From the NCBI RefSeq assembly GCF_016806735.1, contig NZ_CP060530.1:240001-272000 (forward strand): a stretch of DNA of 32,000 bases, in the 5' to 3' direction. Made by a program: the position numbers and the translations under genes. Positions 7,409 through 32,000 of this stretch are shown piece by piece. The notes below the pieces were generated by a model. That model was given only the letters and a program-made list of their open reading frames with translations, did no database searches and had not been told where the DNA came from. The DNA comes from Candidatus Micrarchaeum sp. (GTDB taxonomy: Archaea > Micrarchaeota > Micrarchaeia > Micrarchaeales > Micrarchaeaceae). Every line of letters begins with the position of its first letter. Within the stretch, counting starts at the first letter, position 1.

Positions 7409-7419
7409 TTCTTGTCTTG

Positions 7420-7896: not shown

Positions 7897-7910
7897 AATT
7901 ACACCTTATT

Positions 7911-8004
7911 TCCCGTTGGAGCGAGTCGAACGCTCAACCTGCCGGTATCTTCTTGACGAAGAATCAAACTACAGCCGGCCGCTCTGCCATTGAGCTACAA
8001 CGGG
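7911..8004 (-). tRNA. tRNA-Tyr (anticodon GTA) with a 22-nt intron at the canonical 37/38 position (intron = 7947-7968)
   Basis: Manual fold. Acceptor CCCGTTG/CAACGGG (C1:G72, the archaeal Tyr identity pair), discriminator A, D-arm GCTC-AATGGCA-GAGC. Anticodon stem GCCGG/CCGGC encloses CTGTAG[TTTGATTCTTCGTCAAGAAGAT]A. T-arm GAGCG-TTCGACT-CGCTC. A 3-4-3 bulge-helix-bulge can be drawn around both splice sites. Confidence 0.9.
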
Positions 8005-16323: not shown

Positions 16324-16470
16324 ATGAGAAGCGAAACAGTCAAAGCGTCTGCAGGTTTTGCAGGAAAGCCACTAAGGCAGCAGAGCGTTGTGGAATTCGT
16401 ACTTACATATGGCTGGGCCATACTTCTCATTGCCATAGTGCTGGGTGCGATGTACGCTGTCGGCCTTTTC
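16324..16470 (+). other. class III (type IV pilin-like) signal peptide and hydrophobic pilin helix
   Basis: Short basic leader ...KPLRQ | QSVVEFVLTYGWAILLIAIVLGAMYAVGLF. With cleavage before the second Gln, Q is +1 and E is +5. The E[FY].xTYGWAIL helix is the form I recall from archaeal class III signal peptide proteins. Confidence 0.7.
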
Positions 16471-19400
16471 AGGCCCAGCATACCTACAACATGCCTTCCA
16501 AATTCCGGGTATCTGTGCGAATCCCCTATAATGAATACTAGCGGCTATGTTGCAGTAAAGTTCGGAACTGTCAACCAGCAAAACATAGTAATAACGGGCC
16601 TGGGATGCTCGAGCGGAGACGTCGTGCCTTCAAATATAAGCTCAACCAATCTGCCTGTTTCCTCTGGCCAAGTAAAAGCCCTTGTCTTCAAGTGCCCGGT
16701 CCAGGCCCATTCAATAAATTCGCATTTTACCGGCACTCTATGGCTTCAATATACTTCCGACGGCATACCTGGCCAGCTGGGCGAAATTGGTACTCTTAGC
16801 GCGGCCGAAAGCACTCCTGACATAGTCGCTACTGCTTTCGTAAGTTCAAATTCCACATCAACAAGCACAAGCACGACTTCGACTAGCACATCCACAACTA
16901 CCACTTCAACTTCAACGACTTCAACTTCTACCACTACCTCTACGTCTACTATTCCGTACGTGCCAATAATACTTAAAAATTCACAGTCGTCAAACACTCC
17001 TGCGCCGTTCCAGCAGATGGTCATAGCCAACAGCACAAAATACGCAAGCTATATCCATTCCGGATGGTCCAATGTCGAATTCACCACCGGGCCAGCAGCA
17101 ACTGGCAATACTATAAGCGCATGGATAGAAAGCAATGCAACAAATTCATCCAAGACTACCGTAGTATGGCTAAAACTATTGTCAGGAATAAAAGCAAACA
17201 ATTCCAGCGTAGTATACATGGATTTCATGCCTGGCAATGTGCTGTCCTCCAACGGGCCAACCGGCGAAGCTCCTCAGCTTTCGCCATCATACGCCGAATA
17301 CGACGACGGTGCAAGCGTGTTCGACTTCTACGCTAATTTCGCAGGAACATCTTTGTCGTCAAACTGGACGTCTGGAGAAAGCGACGGAACCATTTCGGTA
17401 AATAACGGATTGACGGAAACAATACCGTATGATGCTGCAACTGGCAGCTATACATATGTTTCTACCTCACTGTATAAAATCAATGGTCCCGTAATTGCAG
17501 AAAGCTATGCCAACCTGAACGGGTTTGATACTACTAATTTCAGGATGGTCCCGGTAGCATTAACTCAATACAATAATCAGACTTGGCACGCAGATAATAG
17601 TGAAAATGAAAACGCAGCGGGGTGGTCTGGTAATGTTCAGGCCAATCCAACAATATCGGCAGAAACAACTACTTCGTCAGCAGCTGACGAATTTGAAAGT
17701 TCACAGATTTCGTCAAGTAACGCCTATCAATTATTTGGAATATTATATCCAGATAATGGTTCTGTATCAGTCCAATATAATTACCAAAATTGGGGTTCAA
17801 CAACAACTTACGTGCCATCAACACCTCTTTATCTGACAATATCGAATTGGTTAAATCCGGCGCAATCGGAGTACTCAACAACATATCCTATTAATGTTGA
17901 TTGGATACGTGTACGCGCATATCCGCCCAACGGCGTAATGCCTTCTGTCACTTTCTGGAATCAGGATGCTTCGCCATTATTAAAAATACAGAATAATACA
18001 ACAGTTTATGCATCATCAAATGATATAATAAATGCAACCGCCCTATTTCCAAATACAAGCATCGAACTACTAAGAAACGGTAGTGTCATAGCTTCCGGGA
18101 CGGGCAGCGTATCGTATATATTGAATTCCAACAGCAGTTCTACATGGGCGGCAGGCAGATACTATATAACCGCTTACGAACCCGGGGTAGGGGTTCCAAA
18201 CACTATACAAAATATTACTATATCAAAAGCAACTCCAAAAATAAACGAAAGCGTAAGCAATCTCAATACATTTAACACAGGAACAATTTACAACTACAGC
18301 ATCAAATATTCTGTAAATTCCTTCGACAACCAGCTTGATGCATACCTTTCAATAAATGGGATAAATGTATCATCAACTAACTCCATAAGCACCTACACTT
18401 TCAATATGTCAAATACTACTTCATTTTATGCTTTTACACCTGGCAACGCCAACTATACTGCGGTTGCCTTAAACAAGACAAGCGTGTATGTGGTAAGGTA
18501 TCCGTACTACGTGCCCATAACAATATACAACAACCAGTCAAGCAATACTCCGGCCCCGTTCCAGCAGCTCATAAAAATAAACATGTCAAAATACGCTAAT
18601 TATGCATCCGATAACCTTAGCAACATTTTCTTCTTCTACCAAAACAAGACTATAATACCTTCTTGGCAGGAGAGTGGCACAGCAGGGGCTACATTCAACG
18701 GCGCGCCTGCTTATATGATGCAAGAAGGCGGATATAAATGGATGAACAACGCAGCACAGCACTTTACAATATCTATATGGGTAAATCCTTCCTCACCAAA
18801 CGGCGTAATACTAGACGAGCTGAACCAAAGCGATAGCTGGCATGACTCCTGGCTAGACTTAGTTAATGGAAACGTACAAATGAGGATATGGAATCTAGGG
18901 TGCGTGAATCTCGGTGCTATACCAGATAATCAGTGGAGCAACATAGTAATGGAGTACAACGGTTCTACTTATTCCGGATACATTAACGGCAACTTTGCCG
19001 GATCTGGCACCGGAACGCGTTCGGTCCCTGGCGGTTCATATGCCCTGTCCTACGCACTTGGCAAGAACGATACAACGAATTGCGGCTCAGGCTCTGCATT
19101 TGACGGGCTTATGCTTAACTACCAAATATACAACACAACGCTGCAGCCCAGCGGCATAAAAAGCATATATTCAAATGGAAAATACGGAACACCTCCATTC
19201 AATTCGTCCGAAGGGCTAAGCGGCTGGTGGCAGCTCAAATACAACTCCAGCGCACAGGAAGGCGGTGACAACATGGTATACAGCAACGTCAACTTTACAA
19301 GCTTGAATACTTATTATTGGCTCAAGCTCAATAATGGCATACCTGCGAACAGCAATCTTACTGTATACATGGGCTTCGCCAACAAGAGCGACATGCTGTT

Positions 19401-22400
19401 CAATAAACTTACAACCGGCGAAGCCCCGCAGCTTTCGCCATCATACGCCGAATACGACGACGGTGCAAGCGTGTTCAACAACTACTGGAACTTTGCTGGA
19501 ACAACGCTGCCAAGTGGATGGACATCTACTACAGATTTTACGGGAAGTGTCAATAATGGACTAACAGTTACAAGCTCCTCTGCTTGGGCTGGTGTTGCTT
19601 CTGGTGCAATTACTGCATCCCCGCCAATCATATTGGATGCTTATGACGAAGTTACTTCAGAGCAAGCAGCTAACATTGGCTTCAGCTCAGGCACAAGTTT
19701 TAGTTCGACTTATTCATATTACGATTCTTACCAATACCTCCAGGCATCTGGCTCTTCGTACACGACAGCAAATATATATTATGCTACAAGTTCGGCGCAA
19801 ACGGCTATTGTTACTGGCACGCTTCCTACTGCATCGAACTCTGGGTATAATGTTTATAGCGCGGTATTCACTGCTTCAAACGTGGCGCAGCTTCAAAACT
19901 ATGCAAGCGTAGATTCCGCATCAACTACTGATTTATCATCCGCTTCGTATGTTTTTGCTTCAGTATACAGTGGAGCAACGGAAAAAATCCAGTGGATGCG
20001 TACGCGTGCATATCCTCCCAACGGCGTAATGCCTAGTTATAACATAGGGCTTACTTACGCTCCTGCTGCCCCAGAACTGCTAATAAACAAATCTACGATA
20101 TCATATGGACACACGGACGCCATAGCTACATCCTCACAGATAAGCGGTGACGAGGTAGAGCTTTCGATAAACGGCAATGTTGTTTCGGGACCGACGTCGA
20201 ACACAATAAATTATGATTTCCCAATAAGCGTTCCAGGAACTTACATAGTAAATGCTACCAATATAAACAATTCAAAAACTACCTCGCTGCAAATTACTGT
20301 AGTAAAAGCCGTTCCTGAAATCCACGGCCCAAAACCGGGATTTTATTCTAATAGCTACAATTCCACGTACTCAATCTCTACAGTTTCGAATCAGCTTACA
20401 GGAAACCTGTACGTAAACGGCGTAAAAGTCTCCGCGACGAACTCGTCCAATACTATAGAATTAAACGCCCTGGGCACATATGCGCTTATATTCAATACTA
20501 CTGGCAATGCAAATTATACTTCTGCAACAACGGGCATAATAAATGTAGACATAATAAACCAGAGCGTGCCATATAAAATTCCCGATAACATCTATTATTA
20601 TTCAGTAGTGCATGTGCATAACAGCCAATCTGTTCCTACAATAAAGCAGCCACAGGAATACCTGCAAATAAACGCGAGTGCATTTGAAAATTATATAAAC
20701 TATAACTACAGCAGTGCAAACTTCGAATTCTTCTCGGCTAACGGCACAATCGTGCCAGGGTGGATAATAGATAATGTTTCAGGCGAAATAGGCATATGGC
20801 TAAAGCTGCCCGAAAGCATACCTGCAGGGTCAAACGAGACTGTTTATCTGGGTTTTGCACAAAAGGCCACAAACCTTCTCTCAAGCTCAGGCACAACAGG
20901 CATAGGCGAGGCACCACAGTTAAGCTCAACCTACGCCGAATACGACGACGGTACAGGCGTTTTCCAGGCCTATTTCAATGGGGTAACTCCACTTTCAGAT
21001 TTCAGCGTCCAGAGTGGTTACAGCTCAGCTCAGGCATCCGGCCAGTGCGCTACAAGCCTCAATTGCAGGTCAAGCACGGTCTATTACATAAAGTCATCAG
21101 GATCTGGGGCAAGGGCGTTCGACGTTGCATACAACAAGGCATTTCCAGATAACGCAACATTAGTGCTGGGATCGAACATAGATACGACGCTAACCAACGA
21201 AGGCTTCGTGAGCCTAGGCGCAGCTTCAATGTCCTCTTCTCCTCCTGGGATAGACTATTCTGCAGGAAACGGAGACTCGTTATCAACTACGTGGCTACAG
21301 GGCGGCAACTATGGCGGTTCTCCTGGTTCAACTTCATCCACACCTCCACCATATCTTTATTACGAAATGAGTTATGTGCCAGGAGCATCTGACGTAGTAA
21401 GCACGATATACGACGAGGGTGCTTCCGTAAGCTATAACAACTATATTCCATCTTCATACTCAGGAGGTCTATACATAGGGATAGCATCCGCGACAGAATA
21501 CGTAAACGAACTGGACTACTCTAGCTGGATGGCAGCTGCACAGTCCACAAGCACTGGCGTATTCCCTGCAGCAAACGTTACAAGAAATGCGCAGCCTGTA
21601 GGTTCTATAGAGCTCCTAATAAACAGCCAAAGGGAAAACACAACTCTGAATTACTCAATAATAAATATAACTGCAACATCCCTTTCCGGAATATACTCAA
21701 CAGACACTGTAGAAGTGCTGCTAAACGGCAATATTATATGCACAGGAGTTGGAACATGCACCTACGATAGCCCTATCGCAGCCTCAACTTCAACATATAA
21801 CGTTACAGCAAAGAACTTGAATACTTCAGCCGAGCGGACCTTCGGCCTCAAGGTGGACAAGGCCGTTCCGGAAATAAGAACAAACGCACCATATTACGGG
21901 ATTAACAACGGAACAATGTACTACTCGGTCAACACTATAAATTCGCAGATAAGGGCTTACTTGTATGTGAATGGAGTCCAGGTTTCCAACACAATAAGCG
22001 AATCGAGCTACGTAGTAAATGCCATAGGCAACTACAGCCTGTATGCTTCTACGCCAGGAGATTCAAACTATACCAATTTTACAACGCCGACAAAGACAAT
22101 GCACATAATACCTTCGCCAAAGTTCTTTATCCCCATACTCATAACAAACAACCAAAGCGTAGCTACTCCGGCCCCGTTCCAGCAAGAGCTCACGTTCAAC
22201 AGTCTAACGTATAAATATGCCGAAGCTGGCAACCTTGACAACGTTCTATTCTTCTATGCAAACGGAACCGTAGTACCTTCATGGCTCGAATCAGGCAACA
22301 GCAACACTAGCACAAGCACGATATACTGGCTCAACATAAGCCACGGCATTCCAGCAAAGAGCTCTATAACAGTATACCTTGGCATTACAGCCAAGAACTA

Positions 22401-25400
22401 TAGCGTATTTAACAACGTGTCAATCGGCGAAGCAGCACAGCTGTCATCCCCATACGGCGAATATGACAATATTGCCCATGTAATGGACAAGGGGCTCCTA
22501 TACCAGATATGGGGCTGGGGCGGCTCAGGCATACAGTCGCAGTCGGAACTATACCAGTCTAGCATGACTCCAGGGTCCAGCTTCACTTTTGGCACTACCA
22601 CAGCAACGGCGTCCCAGACATTGTATAATGCCAACTTTACCGGAGTTACGGAAGACGTTGACGGTTCATCGGAGCCATACGTAATAATAAACTACCAGAA
22701 CGGCTATTCTGGAGGAGCACCGCCTCCAAACCCTCCGGTATCAAACGACAATTTCTGGCTTCTCAAAGCGATAGGATTCGTGCATTACACATCTGGCGTA
22801 TCTCTCTACGGGATAGCTGACGACGCCATAGGCTTGGGATATAGCCAATATTCGACAGGCAGCATAGGGTCCTGGATCGGAGGTACAAACAATCCAAACA
22901 ACACGATAAGCGAATGGAAAGCAGAGGGTGCAACCGTATATTCAGGCACAATATCGAGCAGCGGGGATTATCCGATAGAACTAGATTTCGAGAACCAGAA
23001 TGGCCCTGGGTATATAGGCATGTGGTCGAATTCACCTCTAAATTACTACTCTGCAGCATATCCTCCTGACGGCGTAATGCCGAGCGCTGGTGTGGAAGCC
23101 ATAAACGGGCCTCCAGCGCTGAACATAACCTACGATACCATAGCGTATTCGAACACAACGGATTATATATACGCCACTGGACGCCCTTCGAACAACACTG
23201 TCGAAATACTCATAAATGGAAACGTTGTCGATACGGGCATAGGGACATTGAACTACACTCTGCCAATACTTCCTGCAGGAACATACAAAATAGAGGCATA
23301 TGACACTAACAAAAACCTTTCAACAAACGGCACCATAACTATAATCAAAGCAGTTCCTGAAATAACAGAGACAAGCGGCGGCACATATTCCAAAAACTAT
23401 ACGATAGGCTTCGCTTCCAACACTGTAAACGACCAGCTTACGCTCAACCTTTACGTGGACAATGCAATAGTGGCATCCACAAATTCCGTTTCAGACTATC
23501 CAATAAACAAGGTGGGCAATTACACATTCTTCGCAGGCACTGCAGGCAATGCCAACTACACGGCCAGGAATCTTACTTTGCAGCAGCTGCACGTGATACC
23601 TAAACAGGTGCCATCAATTGTTCCTAATGACATTGCCTATTATGTTCCGATTGTGATAGCCAACAATCAGCCAGTCGCTACGCCTGCGCCCTTCCAGGAA
23701 ATGCTTACTGTCGATAGCGCGCTGTATAAGCAATATGAAAACGGCTCTTTGGAGAACGTCAAATTCTTCTATTCAAACGGCACCACAGTGCCCTCGTGGC
23801 TCTATTCTGGCAATTCGAACCACAGCACCTCTTCGATATACTGGGTAAAGCTTTCCGGAGGCATAAGCGCAGACTCGTACCAGACAATATTCATGGGATT
23901 CAGCACAATGGAAGCCGTCATAATGAACAACAGGACAACCGGTGAAGCCCCACAGCTGAGCAAGGTATATGGCCAGTATGACGATATAGCTGGCGTAATG
24001 AACCCTGGCCTGCTATACGAGGTGTATTACAACGGTGCCGTAACCGGATGCGTCCCGACTGATAACGACGTATATGCTGCAGTAGTGTACAGCGGCTATT
24101 CGATAAACGGATCATGCAGTCCAATAACTTCGAGCACGCTGCCATCGCTGACTCCGGTAACCGGGACATCTCAGTCTGTTGACGGAACGGGGGAGAACAA
24201 CGTGCTTATAAACGTTGAAGGGGGCTATACCGGCGGCTCTCCGTTCCCGAACCCCCCAGTTTCCAACTACGATGATATAATAGTCACCAAGAGCATAGGA
24301 TTTGCAGATTCAAAGCAGCCTGTCAATTTCTATGTCAAAATAGACGATGCAGGCCAGCTCGGCTATTCGAACTACACCCTTAACGGCTCGGAAGAAAACT
24401 GGCTGGGCAGTTATTCAAATTCCTACAATATAATCAACGAATGGCACGCCGAAGCCGCAACACAATACAATGGCATAGTGACTGGCACAGGCGCCTACCG
24501 CATACAATATGACTACGCCAACCAGGGCGGTCCAGGCTATTGGAGCTTATGGTCCAATTCAAGCGTTAACTATTACAGCCCTTCTGCACAGCCAAACGGC
24601 GTAATGCCCGCTTACACAACAGGCCAGCTCGGCTACGGCATGAACAGGCTTATAATAGCCAATAACCCCGCACAGTACCACGTAAAGAGCGGGGTCATAG
24701 CTGTAGGGCTAAACCTTACCAACAATATCGACATATATGTCAATGGCTCATTCGTCAAAAACGGCACTGGCATAGTCAATTATACCGAAGACAACCTTCC
24801 ACTTGGCAATTTCAGCGTCAAGAGCGTGAACCTGGCAACAAGCAACACCATAACCGAAAACCTGCGCATAATACCGAACGACCCGTTCCTTATAATACAG
24901 TTCCCGCAGTCGCTCTACGGGGACCAGAACAATATAACTGGAATATCAAACGTCACAGGTGACAGGATAGAGCTGCGCCTCGAGGACGGAGTCATACTGT
25001 CAACAGCATCAAACACTGTTGTTTACGATGGCAATACGCTAAAGCCCGGCAAGTACAACATAACCGCAATAGACCTAAACCAGCCGGCATATTCGCAAAC
25101 AAAAAGCCTTACGATACTGCCTCCGAACGTGACTCTTAGCATACAGCACCAAACTGCACTATATTATACTAATGACCTTCTGAACGCAACGACCTCCCAG
25201 CCGCTAGACCATGTGACCATAGCCATAAACGGCACGGTTGTCGCAAATTCGACTTCGAAGACTTCATATACGGAAAACTCGCTGCCCCTGGGGGTTTATC
25301 CTGTGCAGGCGTGCGATGCGGATTCGCTCACGTGCACCAACATCGAAAACCTTACGATAGCTCCTAACGACCCGCACATATCCATACAAAACAGGCTTGC

Positions 25401-28400
25401 CGAATTCGGCCAGAACGACACGATAACTGCAACGTCAAACGTCACCGGAGACAATGTCAGCATAATAATAAACGGGAAGGTTGTGGCATCGGGCGCAGGT
25501 GCTGCATACTTCAATACTGCGTCGCTGGTTCCTGGAACGTACAACGCCACTGCTGAAGATACTGTGCAGCCGGCTTATTCGCAGCCCTTGCAATTCGAAG
25601 TGACCGGCCAGGTGGTTTCACCTGCAGGAATACTTAACTATGTTCCAATACTGATAACAAACAACCAGAGCGTAGCTACGAAAGCGCCATTCCAGCAGAT
25701 GATAGAAGTAAACGCCCAGAACTACGTCTCATACGAATCCGGAGGCATGCAAAATGTCGAATTCTCCTACTCAAACGGCACCATAATACCTTCGTGGTTC
25801 GAGGGCAGTCTGGCAAACGAATCCAAAACGACATCCCTCAACGAGTCTGCAGGCGATGTTTACTGGCTTAAAATAGCAAACGGCATCCCAGCAAAGAGCT
25901 CCATAACAGTATACATGGATTTCGCGGCAGTAGGCAAGAATCTGCTCAATTCAAATTCAACCGGAGAGGCCCCGCAGCTAAGCTCAACATATGCGCAATA
26001 TGACAACGGTGCGAACATATTCAACAATTATTGGAATTTCGCCGGGACATCGATGCCGAGCGGATTTACCGAATACTCAAATGGCGGTTCTACGAGCGTT
26101 GACAACGGCCTCAACATTGATCTTGCAAGCAGCGGAGATTATATGTCATTCGTATACGGGACTCCAATAAGTGCAAATGACACGATAGTTGAGACCTACG
26201 ATTCTGGAACAAGGGGCAATGGCCCTACAGACCTTGGAATGTACCAGTCAAACAGTGGCAGTGCAGGCGGCTATGCCGGCGTTGCAAACACGTGGGGCTG
26301 GGGATATGGCACCATAAGCAGCGGCTACAGCAACCTGGGCAGGCCTTTCGACATTTCCGACGGCGACGGTGTAGCTAGCATATACTGGATAGGCAGCGGA
26401 AACGAGGGCGTAGGGTGGAATTATGATTTTGTTTCAAGCACAAACACCAACGAGGCGTTCCATAGCAGCGCATACATGACAATCGGAATCGGCTATGCAG
26501 CTGCAGGCTCCGACATCAATTATTACTGGCTCCGCACAAGATATTATCCTCCCAACGGCGTAATGCCTTCAGTAGACTTCGGCACTGAGAGATCAACAAC
26601 TGGCGCTTATCTAAACATAAGGCACAATCCATCGCTCTACAGGACAAACGACACTTTCACCGCAATAGCTTCGAATGCCACTTACATAATAGAAATACTC
26701 AAGGACGGCACCCTTGTCTCAAGAGGCTCGGGCAGCACTTCCTACACCGAAAACGATTTTGCCATAGGCGCATACAATATAACTGCAGACAACCTCAACA
26801 CCGGCAATACTACAACGCTAAAACTTTCAGTGATACAAAATCCTCCAAGGCTGAGCGTATCTAAAACAAAGCTTCTATTCGGCCAGGAGGACACAATAAG
26901 CGCCTATTCGAACGTCACCGGAGACAAGATTGCGATAGAAATATCCAATTCCATAGTTTCTGAAGGAATAAACAACGCCACATATGCAGAAACAAACTTA
27001 AGCATAGGCAACCACACGGTAGTGGCTGAAGACCTAAACGCCAGCAACTTGGCCCAGTCGGCACCACAGGTCATAACGGTTCTCAAGAACCCGCCAAGGC
27101 TTGAGATTGAATCCTCAAATTCGCCTTACGGCAAGGACGACAATATCACTGCAATATCCAATGTCACCGGCAACAGGGTTCAGATACTGGTCAACAACGC
27201 AATAGTCGCGAACGCAACTGGCACCACAGTATACAACGCCAACACGCTGACAGTCGGTACATACAACATAACAGCAAGGGACATAAGCCCCAACGACACT
27301 TCGCAGACGTCCAACACCCTTACCATAGAACCTCCAAACATAGAGCTATATTTCACATCCAATCCGAGCTTCTATGGCAACAGGAACGAAATTACCGCGG
27401 AAGCCTCGATTGGCATCGACAACGTTACGCTTAGCATAAACGGAAACTTAGTGGCAATAGGCGTTGGCAAGGCTAACTTCACAGAATCAAATTTCAGCGT
27501 GGGCAACTATACTGTCCAGGGCTGCGACACTACTGCGAAGTTCTGCACAGCCAATACAACGCTAAGGGTGGAGCCGAACCCTCCACTGCTGACAATCCAG
27601 CACAATCCGATGCTGTACGATCAGGACAACAACATAACTGCAAAAGCCAACAATACTGGGTCAGGCATAAAGCTGCTGATAAATGGCACGGTTGTAGAAA
27701 ACGGCACCAATGAGGTCTTCTACAACGCGAAATCGCTGGCTCTCGGCACATACAACATAACCGCGGAAAGCCTGAGCGACAACGTGCTTGCGGTAACAAC
27801 TGCAAAACTCACAGTCAACAAGAACCTTCCGATACTGTCGATACAGAACCGCACTCCGCTATACAGGAATACAAACCTCATATCGGTGCTGGCAAATGTA
27901 ACAGGATATCCGATAGAGCTCTTAATAAACGGCACAGAGGTGGCCAACGGAATAGGAAACATAACCTATGATGCGGACACGCTCAAGCCTGGCAACTATT
28001 CTGTCATAGCTGCAGATACAAATTCGTCCAATCCATCTACCGTAAATTCCACGATAAAGGTCCTGGCTCCAAAGGTATCAATAACTCCTGTCAAAGGATC
28101 ACCGGAATACGGGCTTAACTTCACCCTTGAGGCCAACACCACGCAGAAACTCGATACCGTCAACATGTCAATAGGCAACACTCTTATAGGAAGGTCAGCT
28201 TCGCATTTCAACTATACAGAGGACAATTTGAGCATAGGCACATACAACATAACCGCGTGCGATGTCAATGCAAGCGTGTGCGCAAAGTACTCGCTCACAA
28301 TATCCAAAAATTATCCTTCGCTGAAGCTCAGCCAGAATCCGTCGCCATACGGAACTCCGAACTATGCAACCGTAAACACGTCACTGCACGGCAAGGTTGT

Positions 28401-31400
28401 TGCGCTCTCGATAAACGGAAACGTCGTGGCACGTTCGCCGAACGGCCTGGTATACAACCTTACAAACCTGACCACGGGCACTTACAGCCTACTCGCACAG
28501 GTCAACGACAGCGCGGATGACAACGCCACGACTTCGGTATCGCTTTCAGTAACGACCCCGCAGGCATACATAAGGATAAGCAACGACCCGGAGCTCTTCA
28601 ACCAGAGCGGCTACATAAACGCCTCGGCTTCGCTCAAGACCGCTCCTGTTGCGCTTTACATAAACGGCACCAAGGTTGCCAATGCAACCGGCAGCGTATC
28701 GTACAGCGAGGCCAAGCTAAAGATAGGCAGCTATTCGATAAAGGCCTGCGATACGTATTCAGGCGCGTGCTCGTACTCTTCGCTAGTGGTTGTGCCAAAC
28801 CCACCAGGGCTTTCGGTGCAATACTATAAGCCGCTCTACAACCAGAACGACACGGTAGTGGCTGTGACAAACATAAGCAGCTACGGCATACAGGTAAAGC
28901 TCAATGGCAACGTCATAGCGAACAATACCAAGTTTTACAGCTTCAATACAAAGGGCTTTGCGCCGGGGCTCTACAACGTGACTGCAACCGAACTGGATGC
29001 AAACGATTCGTACGCCGAATCCACCGCCTTTATAACAGTGGAAAAGCCTGCGATAAGCCTAAGCTTTACAAGCAATACTCCATATTATTCTGCCACAGAT
29101 GTCATAAACGCAACAACCTCGCAGCCTTCTGACATTATAGCCCTATACATAAACGGCAACGTAATCTCAAAGTCCAAGTCAAGGGTCTCTTATTCGGAGA
29201 ACAGCCTTGCCATAGGCACATACAACATAACCGCATGCGATCTCAACGCGAGCTCGTGCGGTTCTGCCAAGATTTACGTAATGCCAAATCCTCCAATACT
29301 TGCAATAAAGAGGAGCCCTGAGCTGTACAGCGCCAACGACACGATAACGGCAACCGCAAACGTCACCGGCAACAGGGTTCAGATACTGGTCAACAACGCA
29401 ATAGTCGCGAACGCAACGGGCAGCGCCACTTACAACGCAAACGTGCTTTCTACCGGCACATACAACATAACAGCAAGGGACATAAGCCCCAATGACACTT
29501 CGCAGACGTCCAGGCAGCTTGACGTCATACCAAACCCTCCATTGCTCACAATCCAGCACAACCCGAACGTCTATTCAAGGAACGATACCATAAGCGCAAG
29601 GGCCAACCTGTCTCTGAACAGGGTGTCGCTCTTCATAAACGGCAAGGCAGTAGTATCAAACGCCATAAATGCCACTTACAATGCCAACGTGCTTGCAGTT
29701 GGCACATACAACATAACAGCAGAAGACCTAAACGCCAGCAACATAGCTTACTCCACTGAATACCTCTCCATAGTGCCAAACCCTCCGCTGCTCACAATCC
29801 AGCACAACCCAGTTTTGTACGGCGTCAACGATTCCATAAGGCTGGAATCAAACATAACAGGAAACCCTGTGGCACTATTCATAAACGGCACAGAAGTGGC
29901 CAACGCCATAGACAATCTGACTTATGTGGAAAATGCATTGGCGATAGGCAACTACATACTGACGGTCAAGGACACAAGCCCGTCCAACCCTGCAAGCTTT
30001 AACACTACTCTATACGTGCTTCCAAACGATCCGCTGCTAAGGGTACAGGGCAATCCGGCTATGCCAGGGCAGAACGATACGATAAGCGCCATAGCAAACA
30101 AGAGCAGCGATTCTGTAGAGCTCCTGATAAACGGTACCGAAGTGGCATCGGGCATCGGAACCGTAAACTACGACACCAACAGGCTTGCCGTAGGGTACTA
30201 TTCATTGGTTGCTGTCGACACCGTACAGCCGGCGTATTCGAAGAAACTGGTGTTCGCGGTGGCGAACACGCCGATTGCTCCTACAAACATAACATCGCTC
30301 ATACCTATACTCATAACAAACAACCAAAGCGTAGCTACTCCGTCACAGTTCCAGCAGCTGCTGCACATAAACAGCAGCGCCTATTCGACTGCCGAAAAGG
30401 CAAACCTCTCCAACGTTGAGTTCTTCTACGGCAACGGCACAGTGATACCCGCATGGATAGAGCAGAACGCAACATCATCTTCAAAACAGACTGCTTATTG
30501 GATAAAGCTGCTTTCAAGCATACCTGCAAAAGGCAGGCAGATAGTGTACATGGGCTTCTCGAACTCCGACATATTCTCACAGCACACAACCGGAGAAGCT
30601 GCACAGCTCTCTTCAACCTATGCAGAATACGACAACGGGCAGAATGTCTTCAATTATTATACGGACTTTGCAGGGACTAGCGCCAATACTAGCCAGTACA
30701 CTGTCAACGGTATAGCAACTATAGACAACGGGCTGATTCTGCCTCCGGGCAACAAGACCAGCTACGTTTCAAGCGTCAAGGAATACGATACCGCAACAAA
30801 CGAGTCCGACATATACTGGGATGCAACTACGCCGCTCAAGAACGCAATAACGCTTGGATACAACGCTTCGCACTCAGTCACAGTAGTGAACGCACTGTTC
30901 TGGGCCGTCAACAACCATAACTACAGGCTATTTACCGCAAAGAGCATATTCAACAACTTCGAGAACGGGCTGGACCTTTCCGGGGATTACGTGTTCTCCA
31001 ACTACAACATAGGCAACAGAAGCTACGGCTCATATTCAAGCCTGGCACAGGAGCAGAACTATACGTCATACAATACGTCAACATACTCATTCAACAGCAA
31101 GGCGTTCCTGCAGGTTGAGAACAACCCGAACAACAGGACCACAGGCGTTTCGGTAGATGTCTACTGGATGAGGACAAGGTCAACGCCTCCAAACGGCGTA
31201 ATGCCATTAGCAAGCTACGGGCTTCTCCACACTCATTCGGTTGGCAGCTGCAACATAACTGCTTCAACGAGCCGCATAAGCCTGGGCACGCTGTTCGCCA
31301 ACACCAGCGAGGCGACCAAGGAGCCGATAGCGCTTACAAACCACGGCAACTCAACTGCGTACGTATACGCATACGGCAGCAAATGGGTATCGCAGTCGCA

Positions 31401-31608
31401 CTACTTCGGCCCGACAAACACTACGTACGCCAACCTAACCGGGGTTCCATGGGCTCTTGCAGGAAGGATATTCAACATACAGAGGAACTGGATAGTCAGC
31501 ATAGCACCTGGCTCCTCGGCGACAGTGTACATAGGTGCAGACATACCGAACTCCACCTATGAAGGCAATTACTCGCAGAGCATATACTTCGTGAGCGACT
31601 GCGCCTGA
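16324..31608 (+). CDS. giant (5,094 aa) pilin-anchored surface protein: class III signal + 7 DUF2341-like/lectin-like modules + ~27 Ig-like units + Cys-bracketed C-terminal domain
   Basis: Single open frame. The track start 16225 is replaced by ATG 16324, 13 nt after the MinD stop, which yields MRSETVKASAGFAGKPLRQQSVVEFVLTYGWAILLIAIVLGAMYAVGLF. The domain order was read directly from the translation (see sub-features). All minus-strand ORFs inside are shadow ORFs. Confidence 0.85.
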   Translation: MRSETVKASAGFAGKPLRQQSVVEFVLTYGWAILLIAIVLGAMYAVGLFRPSIPTTCLPNSGYLCESPIMNTSGYVAVKFGTVNQQNIVITGLGCSSGDVVPSNISSTNLPVSSGQVKALVFKCPVQAHSINSHFTGTLWLQYTSDGIPGQLGEIGTLSAAESTPDIVATAFVSSNSTSTSTSTTSTSTSTTTTSTSTTSTSTTTSTSTIPYVPIILKNSQSSNTPAPFQQMVIANSTKYASYIHSGWSNVEFTTGPAATGNTISAWIESNATNSSKTTVVWLKLLSGIKANNSSVVYMDFMPGNVLSSNGPTGEAPQLSPSYAEYDDGASVFDFYANFAGTSLSSNWTSGESDGTISVNNGLTETIPYDAATGSYTYVSTSLYKINGPVIAESYANLNGFDTTNFRMVPVALTQYNNQTWHADNSENENAAGWSGNVQANPTISAETTTSSAADEFESSQISSSNAYQLFGILYPDNGSVSVQYNYQNWGSTTTYVPSTPLYLTISNWLNPAQSEYSTTYPINVDWIRVRAYPPNGVMPSVTFWNQDASPLLKIQNNTTVYASSNDIINATALFPNTSIELLRNGSVIASGTGSVSYILNSNSSSTWAAGRYYITAYEPGVGVPNTIQNITISKATPKINESVSNLNTFNTGTIYNYSIKYSVNSFDNQLDAYLSINGINVSSTNSISTYTFNMSNTTSFYAFTPGNANYTAVALNKTSVYVVRYPYYVPITIYNNQSSNTPAPFQQLIKINMSKYANYASDNLSNIFFFYQNKTIIPSWQESGTAGATFNGAPAYMMQEGGYKWMNNAAQHFTISIWVNPSSPNGVILDELNQSDSWHDSWLDLVNGNVQMRIWNLGCVNLGAIPDNQWSNIVMEYNGSTYSGYINGNFAGSGTGTRSVPGGSYALSYALGKNDTTNCGSGSAFDGLMLNYQIYNTTLQPSGIKSIYSNGKYGTPPFNSSEGLSGWWQLKYNSSAQEGGDNMVYSNVNFTSLNTYYWLKLNNGIPANSNLTVYMGFANKSDMLFNKLTTGEAPQLSPSYAEYDDGASVFNNYWNFAGTTLPSGWTSTTDFTGSVNNGLTVTSSSAWAGVASGAITASPPIILDAYDEVTSEQAANIGFSSGTSFSSTYSYYDSYQYLQASGSSYTTANIYYATSSAQTAIVTGTLPTASNSGYNVYSAVFTASNVAQLQNYASVDSASTTDLSSASYVFASVYSGATEKIQWMRTRAYPPNGVMPSYNIGLTYAPAAPELLINKSTISYGHTDAIATSSQISGDEVELSINGNVVSGPTSNTINYDFPISVPGTYIVNATNINNSKTTSLQITVVKAVPEIHGPKPGFYSNSYNSTYSISTVSNQLTGNLYVNGVKVSATNSSNTIELNALGTYALIFNTTGNANYTSATTGIINVDIINQSVPYKIPDNIYYYSVVHVHNSQSVPTIKQPQEYLQINASAFENYINYNYSSANFEFFSANGTIVPGWIIDNVSGEIGIWLKLPESIPAGSNETVYLGFAQKATNLLSSSGTTGIGEAPQLSSTYAEYDDGTGVFQAYFNGVTPLSDFSVQSGYSSAQASGQCATSLNCRSSTVYYIKSSGSGARAFDVAYNKAFPDNATLVLGSNIDTTLTNEGFVSLGAASMSSSPPGIDYSAGNGDSLSTTWLQGGNYGGSPGSTSSTPPPYLYYEMSYVPGASDVVSTIYDEGASVSYNNYIPSSYSGGLYIGIASATEYVNELDYSSWMAAAQSTSTGVFPAANVTRNAQPVGSIELLINSQRENTTLNYSIINITATSLSGIYSTDTVEVLLNGNIICTGVGTCTYDSPIAASTSTYNVTAKNLNTSAERTFGLKVDKAVPEIRTNAPYYGINNGTMYYSVNTINSQIRAYLYVNGVQVSNTISESSYVVNAIGNYSLYASTPGDSNYTNFTTPTKTMHIIPSPKFFIPILITNNQSVATPAPFQQELTFNSLTYKYAEAGNLDNVLFFYANGTVVPSWLESGNSNTSTSTIYWLNISHGIPAKSSITVYLGITAKNYSVFNNVSIGEAAQLSSPYGEYDNIAHVMDKGLLYQIWGWGGSGIQSQSELYQSSMTPGSSFTFGTTTATASQTLYNANFTGVTEDVDGSSEPYVIINYQNGYSGGAPPPNPPVSNDNFWLLKAIGFVHYTSGVSLYGIADDAIGLGYSQYSTGSIGSWIGGTNNPNNTISEWKAEGATVYSGTISSSGDYPIELDFENQNGPGYIGMWSNSPLNYYSAAYPPDGVMPSAGVEAINGPPALNITYDTIAYSNTTDYIYATGRPSNNTVEILINGNVVDTGIGTLNYTLPILPAGTYKIEAYDTNKNLSTNGTITIIKAVPEITETSGGTYSKNYTIGFASNTVNDQLTLNLYVDNAIVASTNSVSDYPINKVGNYTFFAGTAGNANYTARNLTLQQLHVIPKQVPSIVPNDIAYYVPIVIANNQPVATPAPFQEMLTVDSALYKQYENGSLENVKFFYSNGTTVPSWLYSGNSNHSTSSIYWVKLSGGISADSYQTIFMGFSTMEAVIMNNRTTGEAPQLSKVYGQYDDIAGVMNPGLLYEVYYNGAVTGCVPTDNDVYAAVVYSGYSINGSCSPITSSTLPSLTPVTGTSQSVDGTGENNVLINVEGGYTGGSPFPNPPVSNYDDIIVTKSIGFADSKQPVNFYVKIDDAGQLGYSNYTLNGSEENWLGSYSNSYNIINEWHAEAATQYNGIVTGTGAYRIQYDYANQGGPGYWSLWSNSSVNYYSPSAQPNGVMPAYTTGQLGYGMNRLIIANNPAQYHVKSGVIAVGLNLTNNIDIYVNGSFVKNGTGIVNYTEDNLPLGNFSVKSVNLATSNTITENLRIIPNDPFLIIQFPQSLYGDQNNITGISNVTGDRIELRLEDGVILSTASNTVVYDGNTLKPGKYNITAIDLNQPAYSQTKSLTILPPNVTLSIQHQTALYYTNDLLNATTSQPLDHVTIAINGTVVANSTSKTSYTENSLPLGVYPVQACDADSLTCTNIENLTIAPNDPHISIQNRLAEFGQNDTITATSNVTGDNVSIIINGKVVASGAGAAYFNTASLVPGTYNATAEDTVQPAYSQPLQFEVTGQVVSPAGILNYVPILITNNQSVATKAPFQQMIEVNAQNYVSYESGGMQNVEFSYSNGTIIPSWFEGSLANESKTTSLNESAGDVYWLKIANGIPAKSSITVYMDFAAVGKNLLNSNSTGEAPQLSSTYAQYDNGANIFNNYWNFAGTSMPSGFTEYSNGGSTSVDNGLNIDLASSGDYMSFVYGTPISANDTIVETYDSGTRGNGPTDLGMYQSNSGSAGGYAGVANTWGWGYGTISSGYSNLGRPFDISDGDGVASIYWIGSGNEGVGWNYDFVSSTNTNEAFHSSAYMTIGIGYAAAGSDINYYWLRTRYYPPNGVMPSVDFGTERSTTGAYLNIRHNPSLYRTNDTFTAIASNATYIIEILKDGTLVSRGSGSTSYTENDFAIGAYNITADNLNTGNTTTLKLSVIQNPPRLSVSKTKLLFGQEDTISAYSNVTGDKIAIEISNSIVSEGINNATYAETNLSIGNHTVVAEDLNASNLAQSAPQVITVLKNPPRLEIESSNSPYGKDDNITAISNVTGNRVQILVNNAIVANATGTTVYNANTLTVGTYNITARDISPNDTSQTSNTLTIEPPNIELYFTSNPSFYGNRNEITAEASIGIDNVTLSINGNLVAIGVGKANFTESNFSVGNYTVQGCDTTAKFCTANTTLRVEPNPPLLTIQHNPMLYDQDNNITAKANNTGSGIKLLINGTVVENGTNEVFYNAKSLALGTYNITAESLSDNVLAVTTAKLTVNKNLPILSIQNRTPLYRNTNLISVLANVTGYPIELLINGTEVANGIGNITYDADTLKPGNYSVIAADTNSSNPSTVNSTIKVLAPKVSITPVKGSPEYGLNFTLEANTTQKLDTVNMSIGNTLIGRSASHFNYTEDNLSIGTYNITACDVNASVCAKYSLTISKNYPSLKLSQNPSPYGTPNYATVNTSLHGKVVALSINGNVVARSPNGLVYNLTNLTTGTYSLLAQVNDSADDNATTSVSLSVTTPQAYIRISNDPELFNQSGYINASASLKTAPVALYINGTKVANATGSVSYSEAKLKIGSYSIKACDTYSGACSYSSLVVVPNPPGLSVQYYKPLYNQNDTVVAVTNISSYGIQVKLNGNVIANNTKFYSFNTKGFAPGLYNVTATELDANDSYAESTAFITVEKPAISLSFTSNTPYYSATDVINATTSQPSDIIALYINGNVISKSKSRVSYSENSLAIGTYNITACDLNASSCGSAKIYVMPNPPILAIKRSPELYSANDTITATANVTGNRVQILVNNAIVANATGSATYNANVLSTGTYNITARDISPNDTSQTSRQLDVIPNPPLLTIQHNPNVYSRNDTISARANLSLNRVSLFINGKAVVSNAINATYNANVLAVGTYNITAEDLNASNIAYSTEYLSIVPNPPLLTIQHNPVLYGVNDSIRLESNITGNPVALFINGTEVANAIDNLTYVENALAIGNYILTVKDTSPSNPASFNTTLYVLPNDPLLRVQGNPAMPGQNDTISAIANKSSDSVELLINGTEVASGIGTVNYDTNRLAVGYYSLVAVDTVQPAYSKKLVFAVANTPIAPTNITSLIPILITNNQSVATPSQFQQLLHINSSAYSTAEKANLSNVEFFYGNGTVIPAWIEQNATSSSKQTAYWIKLLSSIPAKGRQIVYMGFSNSDIFSQHTTGEAAQLSSTYAEYDNGQNVFNYYTDFAGTSANTSQYTVNGIATIDNGLILPPGNKTSYVSSVKEYDTATNESDIYWDATTPLKNAITLGYNASHSVTVVNALFWAVNNHNYRLFTAKSIFNNFENGLDLSGDYVFSNYNIGNRSYGSYSSLAQEQNYTSYNTSTYSFNSKAFLQVENNPNNRTTGVSVDVYWMRTRSTPPNGVMPLASYGLLHTHSVGSCNITASTSRISLGTLFANTSEATKEPIALTNHGNSTAYVYAYGSKWVSQSHYFGPTNTTYANLTGVPWALAGRIFNIQRNWIVSIAPGSSATVYIGADIPNSTYEGNYSQSIYFVSDCA
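16843..16950 (+). repeat. Ser/Thr low-complexity linker (SSNSTSTSTSTTSTSTSTTTTSTSTTSTSTTTSTST)
   Basis: About 36 codons of almost pure ACN/TCN/AGC codons between the 4-Cys N-terminal head and the first DUF2341-like module. Confidence 0.9.
16951..17946 (+). other. module 1: DUF2341-like + ConA/LamG-like domain
   Basis: IPYVPIILKNSQSSNTPAPFQQMVI...NVEFTT...ISAWIES...VVWLKLLSGIKANNSSVVYMDF...GEAPQLSPSYAEYDDGASVF...NFAGTSLSSNWTS...VDWIRVRAYPPNGVMPS. Confidence 0.6.
17947..18498 (+). repeat. Ig-like pair 1 (type B unit + type C unit)
   Basis: B: ...IELLRNGSVIASGTGSVSYIL...GRYYITAYE...ITISKATPKI. C: ...NQLDAYLSINGINVSSTNSISTYTF...FTPGNANYTAVALNKTSVYVV. The same B+C pair recurs after modules 2, 3 and 4. 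Confidence 0.55.
18499..20037 (+). other. module 2: DUF2341-like domain interrupted by a nested LamG-like domain, then ConA/LamG-like domain
   Basis: YPYYVPITIYNNQSSNTPAPFQQLIKI...IIPSWQESG[~165-aa insert]...YYWLKLNNGIPANSNLTVYMGF...GEAPQLSPSYAEYDDGASVF...IQWMRTRAYPPNGVMPS. Confidence 0.6.
18694..19185 (+). other. nested Laminin_G_3-like (ConA-like lectin) insertion inside module 2
   Basis: FNGAPAYM...HFTISIWVNPSSPNGVILDE...LVNGNVQMRIW...IPDNQWSNIVMEYNGSTYSGYINGNFAGSG...ALGKND...FDGLMLNYQIYNTTLQPSGIKSIYSNG follows the Laminin_G_3 consensus as I recall it (FtvsaWv...W.hva.tydG....lYvdG......lG.....f.G.iDevriynraLs..ei..ly). Confidence 0.6.
20038..20592 (+). repeat. Ig-like pair 2 (B + C)
   Basis: ...VELSINGNVVSGPTSNTINYDF..GTYIVNATN...ITVVKAVPEI ; ...NQLTGNLYVNGVKVSATNSSNTIEL...NTTGNANYTSATTGIINVDI. 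Confidence 0.55.
20593..21567 (+). other. module 3: divergent DUF2341-like + lectin-like domain (degenerate terminal motif)
   Basis: YYYSVVHVHNSQSVPTIKQPQEYLQI...FEFFSANGTIVPGWIID...IGIWLKLPESIPAGSNETVYLGF...GEAPQLSSTYAEYDDGTGVF... It ends ...STGVFPAA instead of PPNGVMPS. Confidence 0.5.
21568..22122 (+). repeat. Ig-like pair 3 (B + C)
   Basis: ...VEVLLNGNIICTGVGTCTYDS...YNVTAKN...LKVDKAVPEI ; ...SQIRAYLYVNGVQVSNTISESSYVV...STPGDSNYTNFTTPTKTMHII. Confidence 0.55.
22123..23085 (+). other. module 4: DUF2341-like + PA14-like domain
   Basis: FFIPILITNNQSVATPAPFQQELTF...VLFFYANGTVVPSWLES...IYWLNISHGIPAKSSITVYLG...GEAAQLSSPYGEYDN, then LLYQIWGWGG...FWLLKAIGFVHYTSGVSLYGIADDAIGLGYS...GDYPIELDFENQNGPGYIGMWSN...YPPDGVMPS (PA14-like pattern). 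Confidence 0.5.
23086..23637 (+). repeat. Ig-like pair 4 (B + C)
   Basis: ...VEILINGNVVDTGIGTLNYTL..GTYKIEAYD...ITIIKAVPEI ; ...DQLTLNLYVDNAIVASTNSVSDYPI...GTAGNANYTARNLTLQQLHVI. Confidence 0.55.
23638..24612 (+). other. module 5: DUF2341-like + PA14-like domain
   Basis: YYVPIVIANNQPVATPAPFQEMLTV...VKFFYSNGTTVPSWLYS...IYWVKLSGGISADSYQTIFMGF...GEAPQLSKVYGQYDD, then LLYEVYYNG...FYVKIDDAGQLGYS...GAYRIQYDYANQGGPGYWSLWSN...AQPNGVMPA. Confidence 0.5.
24613..25638 (+). repeat. tandem array of 4 Ig-like units (~80-90 aa each)
   Basis: Units begin ...RLIIANNP, PNDPFLIIQ, PPNVTLSIQ, PNDPHISIQ. The third carries the Cys pair ACDADSLTC (TGC at 25312 and 25333). Confidence 0.65.
25639..26571 (+). other. 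module 6: DUF2341-like + ConA/LamG-like domain
   Basis: YVPILITNNQSVATKAPFQQMIEV...VEFSYSNGTIIPSWFEG...VYWLKIANGIPAKSSITVYMDF...GEAPQLSSTYAQYDNGANIF...NFAGTSMPSGFTE...YYWLRTRYYPPNGVMPS. Confidence 0.6.
26572..30300 (+). repeat. tandem array of 15 Ig-like units (average ~83 aa / ~249 nt)
   Basis: Unit boundaries were read from recurring N-P-P-x-L-x-I/V and P-x-I/V-x-L starts. The core is ...NVTG..V.L.INGT.VA...G...Y.A..L..GTYNITA.D... Four units (4, 7, 9, 11) belong to a Cys-pair subtype. Confidence 0.75.
30301..31206 (+). other. module 7: DUF2341-like + ConA/LamG-like domain
   Basis: IPILITNNQSVATPSQFQQLLHI...VEFFYGNGTVIPAWIEQ...AYWIKLLSSIPAKGRQIVYMGF...GEAAQLSSTYAEYDNGQNVF...DFAGTS...VDVYWMRTRSTPPNGVMP. 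Confidence 0.6.
31207..31605 (+). other. C-terminal ~130-aa Cys-bracketed domain of unknown family (no TM or sorting signal)
   Basis: LASYGLLHTHSVGSCNITASTSRISLGTLFANTSEATKEPIALTNHGNSTAYVYAYGSKW...SIAPGSSATVYIGADIPNSTYEGNYSQSIYFVSDCA. One Cys lies near each end, the pattern looks beta-rich, and there is no hydrophobic tail. Confidence 0.5.
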
Positions 31609-32000
31609 TCAAGCAAGGCATCTTCTTTGCGCTATGCAAACAAAAGCCCCAAGATACAATATAATATACTATAAAGGCCATATGTATGCAAGGCCATTGC
31701 ATTGTTGCTGGCAAATACGCTACATTGGCTTTGCATATCATGCAATTTTGCACTCAATAACTGTATTTCCATCGCTAGTTTACGCGTGCATACGGAAAAT
31801 ACCATAAAAGCGGAAAATCCCTGTTTCGAGGCACAAATCCGTTGATAAAAGAAACCAACCCTGACAATCAACGTAGTTCGGTATTAAACGTATAAAACAA
31901 ATTTTAAATAAGTCCAAAGCTTTAAATACTTTTCATAAAATGGTATTCACAAACAAACGTGTAAAGCGTTTAAGTGATAGAATGAAAAGTCTAAACCCAA

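Follow-up and report, generated by a model that had tools for sequence, protein, structure and literature searches.

A giant DUF2341-family protein with a type IV pilin-like N-terminus as candidate attachment fibre of Candidatus Micrarchaeum harzensis A_DKE

How DPANN archaea recognize their hosts and attach to them is an open question that very few cultivable systems allow to be addressed. One such system is the pair formed by Candidatus Micrarchaeum harzensis A_DKE, an ultrasmall archaeon from acid mines, with Candidatus Scheffleriplasma hospitalis, and the Micrarchaeum chromosome carries a single open reading frame (ORF) of more than 15 kb that occupies almost half of the DNA stretch analyzed here (32,000 nucleotides, assembly GCF_016806735.1, contig NZ_CP060530.1, forward-strand positions 240,001 to 272,000; this whole stretch is called the window and its first letter is position 1). 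What does this gene encode, and could its product serve in attachment? By locus-tag order it is Micr_00291, which is annotated only as ConA-like (PF13385), and no paper discussing it was found. Taken together, the analyses described below lead us to consider its product as probably a giant modular type IV pilin-like adhesin of the DUF2341/arCOG03508 family, acting as a glycan-binding fibre for attachment to the host or to the biofilm. A role as adhesin in host attachment is plausible, and no other candidate attachment molecule of the A_DKE genome is as elaborate.

The frame extends on the + strand from an ATG at 16324 to a TGA at 31608 (15,285 nt, 5,094 codons, zero internal stops), which corresponds to 47.8% of the window and 1.5% of the chromosome. 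The predicted product has a mass of 545 kDa, a pI of 4.6 and 24 Cys residues, and Ser, Asn and Thr together represent 32.6% of its residues. The ATG was chosen by the gene callers in five independent assemblies, and the preceding ORF stops at 16310. A TTG at 16225 opens the longest mechanical ORF (5,127 aa); this start was rejected, as the resulting frame would run into the upstream gene and leave the signal internal, and as it differs from the ATG used in the five assemblies. An earlier note, based on the letters of the window alone, had reported one uninterrupted frame filling 48% of the window in an archaeon taken to be DPANN/ARMAN-like or Thermoplasmata-like; the frame and the DPANN/ARMAN origin are borne out, the neighbouring proteins being identical to those of Candidatus Micrarchaeum (Ca. 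M. harzensis A_DKE and AZ1/ARMAN metagenome-assembled genomes, MAGs).

A frame of this length and repetitiveness raises the question whether it is an assembly artefact or a decaying pseudogene, that is, a collapsed or chimeric repeat array that is open by chance. This explanation draws only on the general risk attached to repeat-rich genes in metagenomes. The closed A_DKE chromosome (989,838 bp) is a PacBio RSII assembly polished with Illumina reads, and its annotation table gives an identical length for Micr_00291. The 5,094-aa product is also called in four other assemblies, with 0–1 differences over the first 9,987 nt. The DNA repeats of the gene are old, the most similar pair reaching 85% identity over 177 nt; the immunoglobulin (Ig)-like domains of the long run, 15 in number, share a mean of 33% amino acid identity. 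In the more distant strains L006, L011, L012 and L008 the frame is open to the contig ends at 79–98% amino acid identity, the strain comparison covering the first ~3,010 aa; two metagenome scans with the 3' end and the C-terminal part found no orthologues. Moreover, most of the gene is under purifying selection, as detailed below, and it is transcribed. A collapsed-repeat artefact is very unlikely, and an artefact or pseudogene of any kind is hardly credible.

The first indication of the nature of the protein comes from its N-terminus. Positions 16324–16458 encode a predicted class III (prepilin-like) signal and a hydrophobic helix, recognized from the alignment of relatives, a transmembrane scan and the AlphaFold2 model. 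A basic leader (aa 1–19, MRSETVKASAGFAGKPLRQ) precedes a predicted cleavage site before Q20, with Glu at +5 and a hydrophobic helix at aa 20–45; the only transmembrane-like segment of the whole protein lies at aa 20–53. Since the motif is too short for Pfam and NCBIfam models, we relied on the relatives' alignment (A1), in which Q20, E24, T28, Y29 and W31 of the segment QSVVEFVLTYGWAILLIAIVLG are invariant and the signal follows the motif [KR][A/G/S/L]↓QSxxE[YF]LxTYGW. This pilin-like N-terminus is common to 88 relatives, with Lys or Arg at −2 in 77 of the 88, Gln at +1 and Glu at +5. Classical prepilin peptidases favour Gly or Ala at −1. The DUF2341 family clearly departs from this rule, the position being occupied by Ala in 42 relatives, Leu in 18, Ser in 17, Gly in 8, Met in 2 and Val in 1.

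The signal is followed by an all-β head with four Cys (57, 65, 95 and 124), common to the small modular relatives (16459–16833), and by a disordered Ser/Thr-rich linker (16834–16953; Ser/Thr tract at about aa 173–210). In the AlphaFold2 model of aa 1–545, built with 78 homologues (mean predicted local distance difference test, pLDDT, 85.5), a helix at 22–45 leads into head strands at 56–163 with pLDDT of about 86–96, and aa 173–205 fall below 50. The model thus contains the N-terminal α-helix and β-sheet globular domain of type IV pilin-like proteins, in agreement with the pilin-like N-terminus, four-Cys head and Ser/Thr linker of the earlier note. Used as a homologue query, the head returned only 6 matches, words from the Ser/Thr linker having probably swamped the candidates. 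Among relatives of aa 1–215 (P0076, P0080 and P0203), class III signal, head and Ser/Thr linker are fused to unrelated cargo, namely a Gly-rich tail, a HINT domain and a 2,499-aa assortment of InlB-type repeats, β-propellers, LamG and three DUF2341 modules. As the same front end occurs with such different cargo, the head appears to serve these archaea as a carrier of general use.

What does this carrier bear in Micr_00291? Seven GEA[PA]QLS motifs (aa 314, 1032, 1528, 2035, 2540, 3214 and 4757) reveal seven modules, which are marked by GEA[PA]QLS..Y.EYD and most of which close with W.R.R.YPPNGVMP, the element P[PD][ND]GVMP occurring five times and W.R.R four times. A profile built from 78 family sequences matches all seven modules with 125–580 bits, and the Pfam model DUF2341 (PF10102, cut-off 23.4 bits) is exceeded by module 1 (25.5 bits) and by module 7 (26–30.8 bits, E 4.2e-7). 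Module 1 (16954–17958) combines DUF2341 with a ConA-like jelly roll. In module 2 (18499–20043) the DUF2341 part, again joined to a ConA-like half, is split by a Laminin_G_3 domain (aa 811–945, window 18754–19158; Pfam E 1.7e-14, 54.7 bits), and because of this insertion the module is matched by the profile in two pieces, hmm 40–239 and hmm 236–483, about 200 aa apart. Module 3 (20569–21618; 125 bits) has a divergent variable half, for which no Pfam or NCBIfam match was obtained, and a degenerate closing motif. Modules 4 (22099–23097) and 5 (23599–24639), which are 46% identical, carry a probable PA14-like domain, whereas modules 6 (25609–26583; 325 bits) and 7 (30259–31209; 281 bits) again possess a ConA-like half. 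The variable halves are thus of the ConA/LamG type in modules 1, 2, 6 and 7 and probably PA14-like in modules 4 and 5.

The lectin-like character of the ConA-type halves is best seen in module 1, most of which is modelled with pLDDT above 90. A Foldseek search of this model against the PDB retrieved the L-type lectins Emp46p/Emp47p and VIP36, GH16 glucanases and the Hc domain of botulinum toxin (E 2e-7 to 1e-5, template modelling score on the target 0.55–0.70, about 210–230 aligned columns). In its predicted structure, module 1 is a β-jelly-roll of the ConA-like lectin/glucanase superfamily. The presence of many GH16 glucanases among these matches suggests another possibility, a surface-tethered array of GH16-type hydrolases releasing sugars from host or matrix polymers in an organism unable to make activated sugars; the published annotation table indeed lists an InterPro GH16 signature for the protein, and its relative P0203 gives a weak Glyco_hydro_16 match. 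However, the catalytic motif ExDxxE of GH16 is absent from all 5,094 aa, a single ExDxE (ELDFE, aa 2219) sits in the PA14-like module 4, Pfam Glyco_hydro_16 has no match in the protein and the closest structures are those of L-type lectins without catalytic function. Because the GH16 motif is missing, the modules look like lectins and not like enzymes, and a hydrolase array appears highly improbable.

For modules 4 and 5 the assignment as PA14-like is probable. A profile of both modules with 2 homologues, compared with the PDB, matched only PA14 proteins (6qe7, RsgI3, E 4e-4; 6qdi, E 0.38), and the matches cover the hallmark segments ..DDG..L.. and G.Y.I..ey.n.G....lWSS. The PA14-like half used as homologue query gave only 2 matches, Pfam PA14 has no match in the protein, and direct sequence searches of the PDB with module 1, module 4 and the C-terminal domain returned nothing or low-complexity Ser/Thr matches. 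A Conexivisphaera sp. MAG encodes a 332-aa protein (P0202) with a PA14-like domain alone behind a crenarchaeal-style hydrophobic N-terminus, MKRHAVSQMLAALILMAIVLIG; occurring there behind a different N-terminus, the PA14-type unit seems to move between pilin-like carriers.

These results modify the description given in the earlier note in some respects. The seven DUF2341-like modules, the ConA-like fold and the closing motif of most modules are confirmed, but the statement that each module has a ConA/LamG- or PA14-like domain applies to six of them, with the PA14 type probable in two and the variable half of module 3 left without a match, and the LamG domain inserted in module 2 had been missed. 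Of the profile searches it recommended, those for the DUF2341, Laminin_G_3 and Big families gave matches, those for PA14 and the pilin signal did not.

Between the modules lie 27 Ig-like units, 25 recovered with an iterated hidden Markov model and two of a "type 2" at aa 629–721 and 1322–1406, which agrees with the number of about 27 first proposed. Modules 1 to 6 are followed by 2, 2, 2, 2, 4 and 15 of them, respectively: units 1–2 (one of type 1 and one of type 2) at 17959–18498, units 3–4 at 20044–20568, units 5–6 at 21619–22098, units 7–8 at 23098–23598, units 9–12 at 24640–25608 and units 13–27 at 26584–30258, the latter with Cys pairs in units 16, 19, 21 and 23. Pfam supports the Ig-like fold through Big_3_5 (3.8e-14), BiPBP_C and Big_7. 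Module 7 is followed by a C-terminal β-type domain of 132 aa bracketed by Cys4976 and Cys5093, immediately before the stop (31210–31608). It resembles the domain that closes several relatives (...G.Y.Q.I.I.N.C), one of which, P0209, aligns over module 7 and the end domain. RTX nonapeptides, LPXTG, PGF-CTERM and a C-terminal transmembrane segment are absent from the protein, the maximum 19-aa hydropathy within the last 120 aa being 1.08, so that the Cys-bracketed terminal domain lacking a C-terminal anchor is as the earlier note described it.

The Ig-like units are also where potential glycosylation sites accumulate. The protein contains 205 N-x-S/T sequons as compared with 112.5 ± 8.7 in composition-preserving shuffles (z = 10.7), and their density is 5–8 per 100 aa in the Ig spacers (6 in units 13–27) versus about 2 in most modules and 4.4 in module 7; several sites are conserved inside the Ig repeat unit. 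The divergently transcribed gene at 10978–13347 (− strand) encodes the oligosaccharyltransferase AglB/STT3, which is likely to be the enzyme for these sequons. Given the concentration of sequons in the Ig spacers, the adjacent AglB and the glycosylated S-layer protein encoded next door, the natural reading of the sequence is that of a stalk covered with glycans and of binding modules that are comparatively free of them.

The modules also vary between strains. In the MAGs L006 and L011 the ParA protein is identical and most of the giant gene shows a nonsynonymous divergence (dN) of about 0.002 and a synonymous divergence (dS) of about 0.03–0.05, with dN/dS of 0.04–0.13 over modules 2–5. The variable half of module 1, on the other hand, has been swapped in both, with nearly identical sequence on either side: it is only about 30% identical at the amino acid level and about 30 aa shorter. 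The swapped segment (gene nt about 990–1560, window about 17314–17886) starts directly after YAEYDDGA.VF and stops before W.R.RAYPPNGVMP, and the next Ig unit is 80–90% identical. Metagenomic fragments 70–77% identical to the module 1 allele of the window exist. Such a swap is expected if the variable half decides which ligand is bound and if the conserved module borders serve as sites of its exchange by recombination.

The ligand need not belong to the host, and it is conceivable that the modules recognize N-glycans of Micrarchaeum itself or polysaccharide of the biofilm, with no host specificity, the protein holding Micrarchaeum in the biofilm or organizing S-layer and glycocalyx. Cultivation of the Micrarchaeon needs biofilm formation, mannose and galactose conjugates abound in the matrix, the gene adjoins S-layer and glycosylation genes, and its expression is constitutive and moderate, all of which would suit a matrix or self-recognition protein. 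A cassette swap of the variable half in near-identical strains, however, better fits changing external targets, and it is specifically in DPANN archaea that depend on a host that related families have expanded, which makes a role confined to matrix or self-recognition doubtful.

To what extent is this architecture known from other proteins? A homologue search with the module only gave 890 word-seeded matches, and a full HMMER scan returned 11,570 cluster representatives with E≤1e-3, of which 2,214 have E≤1e-30. Hundreds of archaeal arCOG03508/DUF2341 proteins of 350–580 aa, typically from Micrarchaeota, Parvarchaeota, Marsarchaeota and Saccharolobus, show the same signal ([KR][A/S/G/L]↓QSA[ML]E[YF]LMTYGWAILII), head, Ser/Thr linker and one module with the GEAPQLS..YAEYDDG core, ending in ...W.R.RAYPPNGVMPSVxFGSV; the single-module paralogue Micr_00366 has the same order of parts. 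Whereas these typical members end with their one module, Micr_00291 shares signal motif, head, linker, core and closer and then continues into Ig units to reach about ten times the usual size, with seven modules, at least two types of variable domain, a LamG insert, 27 Ig spacers and an extra end domain. It further differs from them by its location outside a pilus gene cluster and by Gln at −1.

Multi-module relatives occur among the top-scoring representatives, with lengths of 4,712 aa (7 matched stretches), 4,123, 3,956 and 3,621 aa, and as they are not rare there, the class is known in outline; among the members that these searches retrieved, Micr_00291 is the largest and the most elaborate. 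A fragment of 2,472 aa is 71% identical to aa 232–2728, and thus a more distant orthologue exists. The 4,123-aa relative is from Ca. Parvarchaeum acidophilus ARMAN-5, and one of its modules, of the PA14 type, is 46% identical to module 4; further multi-module giants come from other metagenomes. Giants of the ARMAN-5 type differ in their N-terminus (K[AV]HFT[AT]FL...) and are devoid of the Ig units, although ARMAN-5 and Ca. Mancarchaeum Mia14 are, like the bearer of Micr_00291, host-dependent acidophilic DPANN archaea. Other large DUF2341 relatives (P0238, P0230, P0275, P0252, P0265 and others), of which one is labelled as coming from a gammaproteobacterial MAG, end in a C-terminal transmembrane segment with a basic tail and lack a pilin-like signal, indicating that the DUF2341 module is used with at least two modes of anchoring.

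The view of the earlier note that this adhesin class was an uncharacterized one goes too far: no member of arCOG03508 is biochemically characterized to date, but the family and its role had been predicted, since Makarova, Koonin and Albers (2016) noted DUF2341 proteins in complex "clade 1" archaeal type IV pilus loci and proposed them to be pilus-tip adhesins (PMC4858521), and other DPANN giants exist. In the epd pilus locus of M. maripaludis, a DUF2341 gene was repeatedly recovered in a screen for transformation-defective transposon mutants. Golyshina et al. (2017) described an expansion of LamG-like jelly rolls in a related micrarchaeon, with type IV pilus loci linked to part of these proteins (PMC5498576), and a contact with the host has been proposed for such DPANN domains, as we do for the modules here. 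What is new is the concentration of sequons in the Ig spacers, the strain-level swap in module 1 and the scale of seven modules.

Two bacterial groups offer analogies. In the modular pilins of Streptococcus sanguinis (PilB with a vWA and PilC with a ConA-like lectin domain) and in CofB/TcpB, a linker joins a pilin carrier to a ligand-binding effector, for which a position at the filament tip has been proposed, much as head and linker of the DUF2341 family carry varied cargo (HINT, β-propellers, DUF2341). These bacterial proteins have the N-methylation motif IPR012902 and usually one effector, have been shown in pili with a demonstrated adhesin function and have no detectable sequence homology with Micr_00291. 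The second group is that of the fibrillar RTX adhesins, such as the ice-binding adhesin of Marinomonas primoryensis and those of the LapA/SiiE type, with long stalks of Ig repeats and distal PA14 or lectin domains; they are secreted by the type I pathway, carry RTX repeats and are retained in the outer membrane by a module at their N-terminus. Micr_00291 resembles them in its tandem Ig extender, its PA14-like modules of sugar-binding type and its half-megadalton scale, but it has no RTX, LPXTG or PGF-CTERM sequences, and its modules are interspersed along the stalk and not clustered distally.

The genomic setting bears on whether the protein enters a pilus. Immediately upstream, Micr_00290 (15564–16310, +) ends 13 nt before the giant gene and encodes a FleN/MinD-family ATPase of arCOG00589, described as "involved in pili biosynthesis"; this ATPase is the usual companion of DUF2341 proteins in the archaeal type IV pilus loci mentioned above (PMC4858521). 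Still further upstream, Micr_00289 (13546–15552, +) encodes a surface protein of 668 aa with a Sec signal, CARDB-like β domains, a C-terminal transmembrane segment and a basic tail; the CARDB-like domains are weak matches that contain many sequons, and the transmembrane segment is at aa 617–641. With gaps of 11 and 13 nt, Micr_00289, Micr_00290 and Micr_00291 form a probable operon in which Micr_00289 is the first gene. The pilus machinery itself is encoded elsewhere in A_DKE and is transcribed throughout: the prepilin peptidase Micr_00634 (EppA/FlaK), Micr_00442 (CpaF) and Micr_00444/445 (TadC), and the genome also encodes and transcribes FlaI/CpaF ATPases and small pilins. In co-culture, the mean level of Micr_00291 was 0.95 transcripts per million (TPM), close to that of housekeeping genes such as smc (1.43), and the S-layer gene Micr_00292 directly downstream reached 124.8.

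Several findings weigh against a glycan-binding fibre built on a type IV pilin. The signal of Micr_00291 has Arg at −2 and, in every strain compared, Gln at −1, a residue found in 0 of the 88 relatives and thus unprecedented among them; leader cleavage is a prediction from sequence and, as classical prepilin peptidases have the preference stated above, an uncertain one. The class III signal claimed by the earlier note stands with Arg at −2, Gln at +1, Glu at +5 and the hydrophobic helix, and has an unusual residue at −1. When the N-terminus was scanned by itself, neither Pfam nor NCBIfam (Class_IIIsignal and pilin models) gave a match, and the profile of the head matched no solved pilin among PDB sequences. 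On the side of the ligand-binding modules, the AlphaFold2 model of module 4 is poor (pLDDT 56, shallow alignment); a Foldseek search with it likewise ranked 6qe7 and 6qdi first, at a probability ≤0.33. The window contains no pilus ATPase, TadC or pilin gene, and no peptide of Micr_00291 was found in the published proteomic supplement searched, so that of the transcript and peptide support sought by the earlier note only the transcript was obtained. In a 2021 survey of bacteria, the "most extreme" multi-domain pilin cited has 860 residues; Micr_00291, with 545 kDa, is about six times larger, and for this reason its lifting into a filament is uncertain. Finally, cryo-electron tomography has revealed thin filaments between host and Micrarchaeon that contact the S-layer without penetrating it, the origin of which is not established.

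Part of these findings would be accounted for if the protein were never in a pilus, its class III-like N-terminus being a plain anchor in the cytoplasmic membrane, either uncleaved or cleaved but unpolymerized, and the whole a free-standing fibrillar adhesin passing through the S-layer. Sugar-binding proteins of Sulfolobus carry class III signals without forming pili, and a membrane-anchored giant would resemble them. The unique Gln at −1 and a size that is extreme for a pilin speak for such an anchor, as does a locus in which the FleN/MinD ATPase is the only pilus gene and the other neighbours are envelope genes (AglB, the S-layer gene and the surface protein with a C-terminal anchor). On the other hand, the −1 position of the family is not limited to small residues, 21 of the 88 relatives having Leu, Met or Val, and the invariant Gln +1, Glu +5 and TYGW core are the part that pilins need for assembly. 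DUF2341 proteins were moreover placed in type IV pilus loci by Makarova et al. (PMC4858521), and the corresponding machinery is encoded and transcribed in this genome. We consider a mere membrane anchor possible, though not the better account of the data, and retain the pilin-like adhesin as the preferred reading.

According to this pilin-like reading, the protein would be exported by Sec and its leader removed by the prepilin peptidase Micr_00634, after which the helix would either stay in the membrane or enter the tip of a type IV pilus filament built by Micr_00442–00445, perhaps with the assistance of the adjacent FleN/MinD ATPase. The glycosylated Ig stalk would traverse the S-layer and carry the lectin-like modules past it. 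Judging by typical domain sizes, the extended stalk would measure some 100–150 nm; the Ig units account for roughly 100 nm of this estimate, and a fully extended chain that includes the modules might reach 140–160 nm. Glycans on the Thermoplasmatales host, which lacks a wall, or in the biofilm matrix that both partners share could then be bound in a multivalent manner by seven or eight lectin-like domains, and swaps of variable halves between strains may retune the ligand specificity. In keeping with this reading, lectins specific for galactose and mannose bind to the host matrix in the A_DKE culture, and the thin filaments mentioned above connect the two partners. A bolder version, in which the protein is by far the largest pilin, is located at the tip of a type IV pilus, itself constitutes the fibre seen by cryo-electron tomography and sets the host range through recombining variable halves, seems unlikely to us; if true, strains would switch or broaden their hosts by exchange of cassettes, like phage receptor-binding proteins.

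The idea of the modular pilin is hereby stretched from bacterial proteins of about 0.9 kaa to an archaeal one of 5 kaa. As family and role were already predicted, the advance concerns scale, detail and testability and not a new principle, and single lectin-like modules, the end domain and the naturally swapped module provide the experimental handles.

The remainder of the window contains genes for the small subunit of PolD, a split Amt, two tRNAs, a cysteinyl-tRNA synthetase and a methyltransferase. The Amt gene (5371–6416, −) consists of two overlapping ORFs, one of 243 aa that corresponds to Pfam positions 173–377 of 399 and one of 113 aa that represents the N-terminal part. The 243-aa part is called in L004–L006 and the 113-aa part also in L004 and L005; as other assemblies call these parts, the split is a fixed frameshift, a pseudogene or a split gene and not a sequencing error. 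The tRNA-Asp(GTC) gene (7300–7371, −) has a normal length of 72 nt, and tRNA-Tyr(GTA) (7911–8004, −), with 94 nt, probably contains an intron. In the otherwise identical strain L003 (positions 1–2400, GCA_041825655.1), compared with about 4200–7900 of the window, the segment with the split Amt and a HIT gene is missing and an ORF of 184 aa lies between the UPF0147 and DUF6114 genes, an ORF of this length being situated at 697–1251 in the window; the difference looks like a small strain-level rearrangement. Judging from locus-tag order, the very highly expressed S-layer gene Micr_00292, which continues past the end of the window, probably has its promoter and start in the AT-rich intergenic region downstream of the giant gene (31609–32000); this region shows TTTAAATA-like boxes around 31903–31930 and an ATG at 31983 (MKSLNP...).

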